Part shown: positions 12,001 to 15,000 of the stretch, in pieces
How the letters are laid out: the number at the start of each line of letters is the position of its first letter
Position numbering within the stretch: the first letter of the stretch is position 1
Assembly: GCF_003334355.1 (NCBI RefSeq)
Contig: NZ_QOWP01000024.1
Strand: one strand, 5' to 3'
Origin: Escherichia coli
Lineage (GTDB): Bacteria > Pseudomonadota > Gammaproteobacteria > Enterobacterales > Enterobacteriaceae
Length of the DNA stretch: 64,000 nucleotides
Position numbers: made by a program

Positions 12001-15000
12001 CGCGGGGCAGGCACGTTCTGACGCGATGGAAGCCATACGTTGTGCCGGGCAAAAAGACTGGCAGGGCGCAACTCAGCTAATGGCCAGTTCTGAATCTGCC
12101 TGTCTTCAGGCACATAAGATTCAGACCGCATTAATTAGTCAGGATGAAGGCTGTGGCAAAATAAAAGTTAATTTAATTCTGGTTCATGCACAGGATCATT
12201 TGATGAATGCAATATTATGCCAGGATTTAGCCAGGGAAATTATTTCATTAAGAAAAGAACTCCATGCCTGATTTTTTCCTCCAGTGCGATAGCTGGAGGA
12301 AATTATTATACTCTTAAGGATAAGTCATGAATATAAAGACGCTTAACATCAGCCTTTTGTCTTTTTCTATTATTACAGCATTGTTTCCATTGAACGCGAT
12401 GGCAACAAAATTAACCATAGAGCAGCGCCTTGAATTGCTTGAAAATGAATTGTCGCAAAATAAACAAGAGCTGAAAGCAACACAGAATGAACTGGGAGTA
12501 TATAAATCCCGACTTTCGACCTTACAAAAAAGCATCACGGAAAACAAATATAAATCAGCCTCGCTTGCTGAAATATCAGCGACATCTCCCGTCGCTGATA
12601 ACATCAAAAATGAAAACGGTGAACAGAACTCGTCTGCCGCAGCGCATACTATAAATGGATCGCAGCAAGTTGCCGTTATTGAAAGTAAAGGCGACAAAAC
12701 CACTATCGAAAGCGTGACCCTGAAAGATATCAGTAAATATATAAAGGATGATATTGGGTTCAGCTATCAGGGGTACTTCCGCTCAGGCTGGGGTACTGGT
12801 AATCACGGCTCACCACAAACTTATGCAGCGGGTTCTCTGGGACGTTTTGGTAATGAGATGAGCGGTTGGTTTGACCTGACCTTAAATCAGCGTGTTTATA
12901 ATCAGGAAGGTAAAACGGCAAATGCGGTCGTTACCTATGATGGCAACGTGGGTGAGCAGTATAACGATGCCTGGTTTGGTGACAGTGCCAATGAAAATAT
13001 CATGCAGTTCAGCGATATTTACCTGACAACGCGAGGTTTTTTACCCTTCGCACCAGAGGCAGACTTCTGGGTCGGCAAACATAAACTCCCGCAATATGAG
13101 ATCCAGATGCTGGACTGGAAAACCTTAACCACGGATGTCGCCGCGGGTGTGGGGATTGAAAACTGGGCACTTGGTGTAGGGCTGTTTGATATGTCCTTAA
13201 GCCGTGATGATGTCGATGTTTACTCTCGTGATTTTTCGCGTACCAGCCAGATGAATACCAATTCTGTGGATGTTCGTTATCGCAATATCCCGTTATGGGA
13301 TGATGCGACATTATCATTAATGGCTAAATATTCCGCACCTAATAAAACGGATCAACAACAAGATAACGAAAATGACAACAGTTATTTTGAAATGAAAGAT
13401 AGCTGGATGCTGACTTCTGTTTTACGGCAAAACCTGCAACGCGATACGTTTAATGAATTTACGTTACAGGTTGCCAATAATTCCTATGCCAGCAGTTTTG
13501 CCAGTTTCTCAGATGCCAGTAATACGATGGCGCATGGTCGCTATTACTATGGTGATCATACCAATGGGATCGCCTGGCGTTTAATCTCTCAGGGCGAGAT
13601 GTATCTTACTGACAATATTATTATGGCTAACGCGCTTGTCTATTCTCACGGCGAAGATGTTTATAGTTATGAAAGTGGTGCTCATAGTGATTTTGACAGT
13701 ATTCGCACTGTAATAAGACCGGCCTGATCTGGAATACATGGAATCAGACGGGGCTTGAATTAGGCTGGTTTAAGCAACAGAACAAAACTCAGCAGGGTGT
13801 AACACTAAATGAATCGGCTTATAAAACGACACTCTGGCATGCATTGAAAGTGGGTGAAAGCATTTTAGGTTCACGACCAGAAATTCGCTTCTATGGAACG
13901 TATATCAATATTCTGGATAACGAATTATCGAATTTTAAGTTTAATGAGAACAGCAAAGACGAGTTTATGGCCGGCATCCAGGCGGAAGTCTGGTGGTAAT
14001 CTATTTTAGTTAAGGAGTTGTGTATGTCAGGATTTAAAAAAGGTTTTTTATGGGGCGGCGCGGTAGCCGCGCATCAGTTGGAAGGTGGCTGGAATGAAGG
14101 AGGAAAAGGCATCAGTATCGCTGATGTGATGACTGCTGGCGCTCACGGGGTGCCGCGTGAAGTGACAGAAGGCGTTATCGACGGGCTTAATTATCCCAAT
14201 CATGAAGCAATTGATTTTTATCATCGCTATAAAACAGATATTCAGTTATTTGCCGAGATGGGATTCAAATGCTTTCGAACTTCCATTGCCTGGACACGAA
14301 TCTTTCCGCAAGGTGACGAACAGGAGCCGAATGAAGAGGGTTTACAATTTTATGATGATCTGTTCGATGAATGCCTTAAGCAGGGAATGGAACCTGTGGT
14401 GACGCTTTCACATTTTGAGATGCCTTATCATCTGGTGACAAAATATGGTGGCTGGCGAAACCGTAAACTGATCGACTTTTTTATCCGCTTCGCATCAACG
14501 GTCTTCACGCGCTATAAAGAAAAAGTAAAGTACTGGATGACGTTTAACGAAATCAATAATCAGGTGAATTTCAGCGAAAGCCTGTGTCCATTTACTAATT
14601 CCGGTATCTTGTATTCGCCAGAGGAAGATATCAATGAGCGCGAACAAATAATGTACCAGGCGGTACATTACGAGTTAGTTGCCAGTGCCCTGGCGGTACA
14701 GACTGGAAAATCGATTAATCCTGAATTTAATATCGGCTGCATGATCGCCATGTGCCCCATCTATCCTCTGACGTGTGCACCCAACGATATGATGATGGCG
14801 ACGAAAGCGATGCATCGTCGTTACTGGTTTACTGATGTTCATGCTCGTGGATATTATCCGCAACATATGCTGAATTACTTTGCCAGGAAAGGATTCAACC
14901 TCGATATCACACCAGAAGATAACGCGATTCTTGCCAGAGGTTGTGTCGACTTTATCGGTTTTAGCTACTACATGTCTTTTACGACACAATTTTCGCCCGA

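Follow-up and report, generated by a model that had tools for sequence, protein, structure and literature searches.

Does the gene that starts at position 12327 of this stretch of Escherichia coli DNA (64,000 nucleotides of contig NZ_QOWP01000024.1, assembly GCF_003334355.1; hereafter the window) encode a working sugar porin with a long coiled coil at its N-terminus? An original prediction, made by reading the letters without database searches, had described 12327-12760 as the beginning of such a porin. It proposed about 130 heptad-like residues after the signal peptide, a low-complexity linker before the barrel, and a likeness to the sucrose porin ScrY rather than to the maltoporin LamB. We found that the porin gene is a frameshifted pseudogene in this strain; the prediction implied an intact porin and had overlooked the frameshift near the 3' end. 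The coiled coil was found to be about 45 residues long, not about 130. Taken together, the locus very probably holds the bgcH-type porin gene of a bgc-type operon, with a stalk of the ScrY/BglH type, inactivated here by the frameshift.

The porin open reading frame (ORF) extends from 12327 to 13727 on the plus strand and encodes 466 amino acids. Its ATG at 12327 is also the start used in RefSeq for the identical allele, and the coordinates and reading frame proposed originally were therefore correct: 12327-12760 encodes porin residues 1-144, i.e., the 5' third of the gene, and the peptide quoted in support was found in the ORF. The ORF is preceded by a good ribosome-binding site and opens with a signal peptide. 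Among 71 distinct orthologue N-termini, from Citrobacter, Salmonella, Enterobacter, Kluyvera and others, position -1 of the signal peptide was Ala in 70 and position -3 was Val or Ala. The window is chromosomal, and its segment 12250-14020 was 100% identical in several complete E. coli genomes. The gene and its parts are as follows.

12327-13999, plus strand: whole porin pseudogene, a bgcH-type carbohydrate porin (RefSeq call on a 100%-identical allele with the same span)
12327-12404, plus strand: Sec signal peptide, residues 1-26 (cleavage after A-M-A predicted from the AxA rule)
12405-12551, plus strand: predicted periplasmic coiled-coil segment of the Sugarporin_N type, residues 27-75, core heptads 31-70 (Pfam, heptads, AlphaFold2 and conservation)
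12552-12758, plus strand: linker, residues 76-144 (periodicity, AlphaFold2 confidence and conservation)
12759-13724, plus strand: in-frame part of the LamB-type beta-barrel, residues 145-466, approximately strands 1-14 (Pfam LamB and AlphaFold2)
13725-13727, plus strand: premature TGA stop, the Trp467 codon minus one G (alignment with intact alleles)
13727-13999, plus strand: out-of-frame remnant corresponding to residues 468-557, the last four barrel strands (...AEVWW), followed by TAA (translation)

An antisense ORF of 129 amino acids (12314-12703) lies entirely within the porin gene and is unsupported; it was discarded as spurious.

Intact alleles of the porin encode 557 amino acids (WP_001022785, and WP_001022795 from UTI89). 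Aligned to these, the window was found to carry a 1-bp deletion that changes CCTGGATC to CCTGATC and converts the TGG codon of Trp467 to TGA at 13725-13727. With ...VIRPA as its last residues, the window ORF is without the terminal aromatic (...WW or ...WF) that is the signal for outer-membrane assembly. The porin C-terminus ...AGIQAEVWW is encoded directly downstream in another frame (13727-13999) and is identical to the C-terminus of the intact alleles. We modeled the intact allele with AlphaFold2 on a 41-sequence alignment, with a mean predicted local distance difference test score (pLDDT) of 81.7. The intact allele was modeled as a full 18-stranded barrel, whereas the window ORF lacks the last four strands, placed by the model at residues 473-488, 493-508, 519-532, and 545-556. 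Because the product is without these strands and without the C-terminal assembly signal, no functional porin is expected in this strain.

It could be argued that the 466-residue ORF already encodes a whole, working porin with a long coiled coil at its N-terminus, since it is open throughout 12327-13727, has a good ribosome-binding site and a signal peptide, and strongly matches the Pfam LamB family (PF02264, residues 147-466, E 3.1e-57). However, this match reaches only model positions 1-296 of 378, the missing 90 residues lie directly downstream in the other frame, and four strands of the model come after residue 466. A 71-bp probe across the deletion site had exact matches in 71 of 2548 records; all others had the extra G, so about 97% of the alleles encode 557 amino acids. 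Identical alleles are labeled "carbohydrate porin, frameshifted" in RefSeq for FDAARGOS_1277, HS, 214-4, AR_0369, and PSS-12. We consider a complete 466-residue porin to be extremely unlikely.

Nor is the frameshift likely to be a sequencing or assembly error that hides an intact gene. Assemblies commonly contain artefactual indels of a single base, and the upstream gene for enzyme IIC (EIIC) of a phosphotransferase system (PTS) has a frameshift in a CCCC run that recurs in one other genome only. The porin site, however, is a GG dinucleotide and not a long homopolymer, and the deletion is found in 71 records from many laboratories. Since these include four independent assemblies of E. coli HS, each without a gap relative to the window, the deletion was taken to be a real lineage-specific mutation, and an error at this site is very improbable. 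In a separate case, strain TUM14664 (NZ_CP135649.1), the same porin gene was found to be disrupted by the insertion sequences IS903B and IS1, which represents another, independent route of inactivation.

Nothing specific speaks for programmed ribosomal frameshifting that would yield a low level of full-length porin, apart from the otherwise undamaged frame downstream of the stop. Such recoding would need a -1 shift, and no slippery heptamer of the form X XXY YYZ is present around AGA CCG GCC TGA TCT. The downstream frame is undamaged because the mutation is recent (the window allele differs from one intact allele by 3 changes in 1676 nucleotides), and we put the probability of recoding close to nil. 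In what follows the window gene is treated as a frameshifted pseudogene, and the architecture of the protein as that of the intact alleles.

The N-terminal coiled coil was analyzed with a custom heptad score and shuffled sequences, used in place of the standard COILS or MARCOIL. Core positions with unbroken 4-3 spacing were I31, L35, L38, L42, N45, L49, T52, L56, Y59, L63, L66, and I70. When residues 27-146 were shuffled 1000 times, one shuffle equalled the best 42-residue heptad window and three equalled the best 35-residue window. The power of the hydrophobic periodicity at 3.5 residues was 1.12 for residues 27-72 vs. 0.15 for residues 73-125. AlphaFold2 predicted a single continuous helix at residues 31-75 (pLDDT 70-85, monomer). 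In the 71 orthologue N-termini the a/d positions had a mean entropy of 0.33 vs. 0.93 elsewhere, N45 and Y59 were invariant, T52 was present in 70 sequences, and most e/g positions were conserved charged residues.

In the same segment, which follows the signal peptide and precedes the LamB barrel, residues 30-56 matched the Pfam domain Sugarporin_N (PF11471, "maltoporin periplasmic N-terminal extension"; E 3.1e-7). As positive controls, ScrY from a scr-regulon plasmid matched this domain at residues 28-58 (E 2.7e-10) and BglH from K-12 at residues 29-59 (E 1.4e-11), each together with the full LamB model. A weak Pfam match to FliD_N (E 0.02), and a helix that AlphaFold2 modeled as a monomer only, might instead suggest another helical or binding module, e.g., one that is flagellar-cap-like or peptidoglycan-binding. 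The Sugarporin_N match is better by five orders of magnitude, the hydrophobic register strictly follows the 3-4 pattern, the a/d and e/g positions are conserved, and the weak matches obtained in the PDB were to coiled coils, namely tropomyosin and Homer. There is little to recommend a different module, which we regard as hardly probable at all. The matches to FliD_N and to DUF7607 (E 0.41) were put down to generic helical similarity, and the segment is referred to below as the Sugarporin_N coiled coil.

The heptads proposed originally are thus real and above chance at residues 27-75, but none were found over residues 76-144. As the latter residues show no heptad periodicity and are predicted to be disordered (AlphaFold2 pLDDT <50 at about 75-144), the coil is limited to about 45 residues. 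Nor is the linker before the barrel simply low-complexity: three islands in it are conserved among the orthologues, namely residues 87-99 (12585-12623), 109-118 (VNGTQQVAVI, 12651-12680), and 126-146 (12702-12764). The last island (TLKD.SK..KD.IGFSY) also occurs in relatives, among them BglH, and bears a partial resemblance to the pre-barrel segment of ScrY.

From residue 145 the barrel was modeled with pLDDT >90. The best Foldseek matches were LamB (1MPR and 1MAL; E about 1e-24, template modeling (TM) score 0.76-0.79) and ScrY (1OH2 and 1A0T; E about 3e-17, TM score 0.78). Along with the Pfam LamB match, this bears out the assignment to the LamB/ScrY porin family. Absence of coiled-coil propensity, or a best family match outside LamB/ScrY, had been named in advance as grounds for abandoning the prediction; coiled-coil propensity was found, and the best matches fell within this family. 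A family-profile search of the PDB found LamB with E 1e-107 and ScrY with E 3e-40, and the intact allele covers positions 27-414 of the 414 in the NCBIfam LamB profile. For the two NCBIfam maltoporin models the scores were 204 bits vs. a cut-off of 394 (NF006860) and 117 bits vs. a cut-off of 765 (NF009061). Because both fall below the cut-offs, the porin was considered a member of the family but not a maltoporin. In an alignment at 24% identity, four of the six greasy-slide aromatics of LamB, Y6, Y41, F227, and W420, aligned to the aromatics Y150, W181, F375, and W556.

The porin gene is the fourth gene of an operon in the order IIB-IIC-IIA-porin-phospho-beta-glucosidase with a divergent GntR regulator, as judged from the window and RefSeq records. 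The other genes of the cluster are:

9288-9986, minus strand: GntR-family regulator, bgcR-type, divergent, intact (ORF, RefSeq and NCBIfam GntR models)
10185-10496, plus strand: EIIB of the PTS lactose/cellobiose family, intact (ORF and RefSeq)
10611-11932, plus strand: PTS EIIC, frameshifted (split into two ORFs; alignment with the intact gene)
11960-12271, plus strand: PTS lactose/cellobiose EIIA, intact (ORF and RefSeq)
14024-15463, plus strand: 6-phospho-beta-glucosidase of glycoside hydrolase family 1 (GH1), bgcA-type, intact (NCBIfam NF007154, 1031 bits vs. a cut-off of 624)

The cluster, 6.2 kb in all (9288-15463), forms an insertion/deletion island flanked by eamA and marB. Of 5426 complete E. 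coli genomes, 2553 (47%) were found to carry it, with intact copies in UTI89; the copies in UTI89 and in the window share 97.3% identity. K-12 MG1655 lacks the island, and 30 bp separate marB from eamA there. An operon named bgc was reportedly described in septicaemic and uropathogenic E. coli by Neelakanta, Sankar, and Schnetz in 2009. The gene content of the cluster suggests that it is this published operon. As summarized in PMC3585215, the bgc operon consists of five genes, which include one for a phospho-beta-glucosidase and those for PTS IIB, IIC, and IIA, and it is accompanied by a GntR-type regulator; PMC4488073 lists bgc among the beta-glucoside systems of E. coli.

The EIIC gene differs from its intact counterpart by a 1-bp deletion that reduces CCCC to CCC at about 11247. 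Among the 2502 genomes with the region, the deletion was found in one only, PSS-12, where the gene is annotated as "frameshifted". Because the site is a homopolymer, an artefact is harder to exclude here than for the porin. As EIIC is frameshifted as well as the porin, the whole uptake system appears to be decaying in this strain. The locus would then exemplify an accessory operon for sugar uptake that is in the process of decay, here in a minor HS-type lineage of commensal E. coli.

The 55-bp gap that separates the EIIA gene from the porin gene downstream contains a hairpin (12275-12302) with an 11-bp stem, TTTCCTCCAG...CTGGAGGAAA, followed by a T-rich tail. In a 69-nucleotide context its minimum free energy was -21.1 kcal/mol (z = -3.2). 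UTI89 also has the hairpin, apart from one substitution in the loop and an indel of 1 nucleotide at the stem's 5' foot, within the T/C run. The hairpin could be an internal attenuator or an mRNA-stabilizing element that sets the expression of the porin relative to that of the PTS genes. Elsewhere in the window, an intact ORF of 1806 amino acids (37640-43060, plus strand) encodes an AIDA-type adhesin; it scores 4175 bits against the NCBIfam "ECSE_1600 family autotransporter" model, which it matches from end to end.

In strains with an intact allele, the 557-residue precursor would be exported by the Sec pathway. Residues from about 145 to 557 would fold as an 18-stranded sugar channel of the LamB/ScrY type, probably a trimer. 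Residues 27-75 would form the periplasmic Sugarporin_N coiled-coil stalk, which a flexible linker, about 70 residues long, would connect to the barrel. The stalk may be a parallel trimer, some 65-70 angstroms long, beneath the trimeric barrel. By analogy with ScrY, it could stabilize the trimer and/or serve as a low-affinity "extended sugar slide" that hands beta-glucosides on toward the PTS EIIC. The ScrY literature behind the analogy also includes Forst et al., 1998. For ScrY itself, an N-terminal coiled coil that is parallel and trimeric and binds sugar with low affinity has been described (Dumas et al., 2000, as cited in PMC6173795). An "extended slide" was already proposed by those working on ScrY. 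The product of the window allele would comprise the signal peptide, the coil, the linker, and about 14 strands, without strands 15-18 and the C-terminal aromatic signal. Because four strands of the model lie after residue 466 the barrel could not close; the truncated product would not be assembled either, and is presumably degraded.

Several points weigh against the locus being read as a bgcH-type sugar porin with a ScrY/BglH-type stalk. A single-sequence phmmer search of the PDB returned no porin even at E <10, only the weak matches to the coiled coils of tropomyosin and Homer, and the subfamily was therefore considered highly divergent. In the 24%-identity alignment, three greasy-slide or constriction residues of LamB (W74, Y118, and W358) faced D, K, and L, the nearest aromatics being 1-2 residues off. 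The lining of the channel would therefore not be the same as in LamB. The name bgcH is a probable one and comes from a secondary description of the operon reported by Neelakanta and colleagues in 2009. Finally, trimerization of the coil, the orientation of its strands and the binding of sugar would all be carried over from the literature on ScrY.

We also considered whether the extension might act in docking, as a module that spans the periplasm to reach the PTS EIIC and replaces the binding protein that serves LamB, which is linked to an ATP-binding cassette (ABC) transporter. The idea was based on polar layers of the core that do not vary (Asn45 and Thr52, both at d positions), the three linker islands, and the genes that surround relatives. 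Seven LamB-family porins with an extension have an informative genomic context, and all of them adjoin PTS EII genes (BgcH, BglH, ScrY, P0129, P0130, P0132, and P0133). A rule by which an extension means PTS linkage, and its absence no such linkage, holds only in part: the extension-less P0159 lies with PTS EIIBC and GH1 genes, and P0131 and P0139 carry the extension with no sugar genes nearby. In view of the PTS-linked P0159, these orphans and the small sample, the association between extension and PTS is suggestive only, and a docking role is in our opinion unlikely.

In sugar porins of the ScrY/BglH type, the N-terminal coiled coil is already catalogued in Pfam as a domain and its biophysics has been published; the operon, too, is a characterized one. 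Because the coil is in Pfam and the gene is a pseudogene here, the finding is an ordinary one. Its value lies mainly in corrected annotation: a coil of about 45 residues, BglH as nearest relative, and frameshifts in both the porin and EIIC genes. The Leu-rich variant with a long linker would be a reasonable construct for comparison in studies on the role of the stalk, for which intact alleles such as that of UTI89 are the material.

Compared to the published bgc operon, the copy in the window differs in that two of the five operon genes are frameshifted. Of the characterized porins, LamB (PDB 1MAL, 1AF6, and 1MPR) is the best structural match to the barrel. The similarity is confined to the barrel (24% identity), as LamB is without an N-terminal extension or Sugarporin_N domain, and its partners are an ABC transporter and a periplasmic binding protein. 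ScrY, the sucrose porin of pUR400 and the scr regulon (PDB 1A0S, 1A0T, and 1OH2), has the same two-domain architecture, an 18-stranded barrel, a PTS-linked operon, and a coil core that also spans 12 positions. It is only 23% identical, however, and its core is rich in Ala and Gln whereas the one described here is Leu-rich with polar layers at N45 and T52. The segment between coil and barrel is much shorter in ScrY, and its substrate is sucrose, vs. presumed beta-glucosides here.

The suggestion that the extension is of the ScrY type and not found in LamB holds insofar as PF11471 is matched here, in ScrY and in BglH but not in LamB; the nearest characterized relative is nevertheless BglH and not ScrY. 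BglH (YieC), which the bgl operon of E. coli K-12 encodes as a carbohydrate-specific porin (Andersen, Rak, and Benz, 1999, as cited in PMC2646131), is 53% identical over its full length. It shares the Sugarporin_N plus LamB architecture, the coil start LT[IV]EQRLELLE and the pre-barrel motif, and its gene also lies beside a beta-glucoside PTS and a GH1 phospho-beta-glucosidase. The heptad run has 7 core positions in BglH vs. 12 here, and the BglH linker is 19 residues shorter but retains the motif of residues 126-146. The bglH gene is part of bglGFBH-yieLK near phoU, under the antiterminator BglG, whereas the gene in the window belongs to a GntR-regulated IIB/IIC/IIA operon. As the latter is located between eamA and marB, a locus other than that of bglH in K-12, and the proteins are 53% identical, the porin was considered a paralogue of BglH and not its orthologue. 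BglH is intact in K-12, while the bgcH-type gene is frameshifted here.

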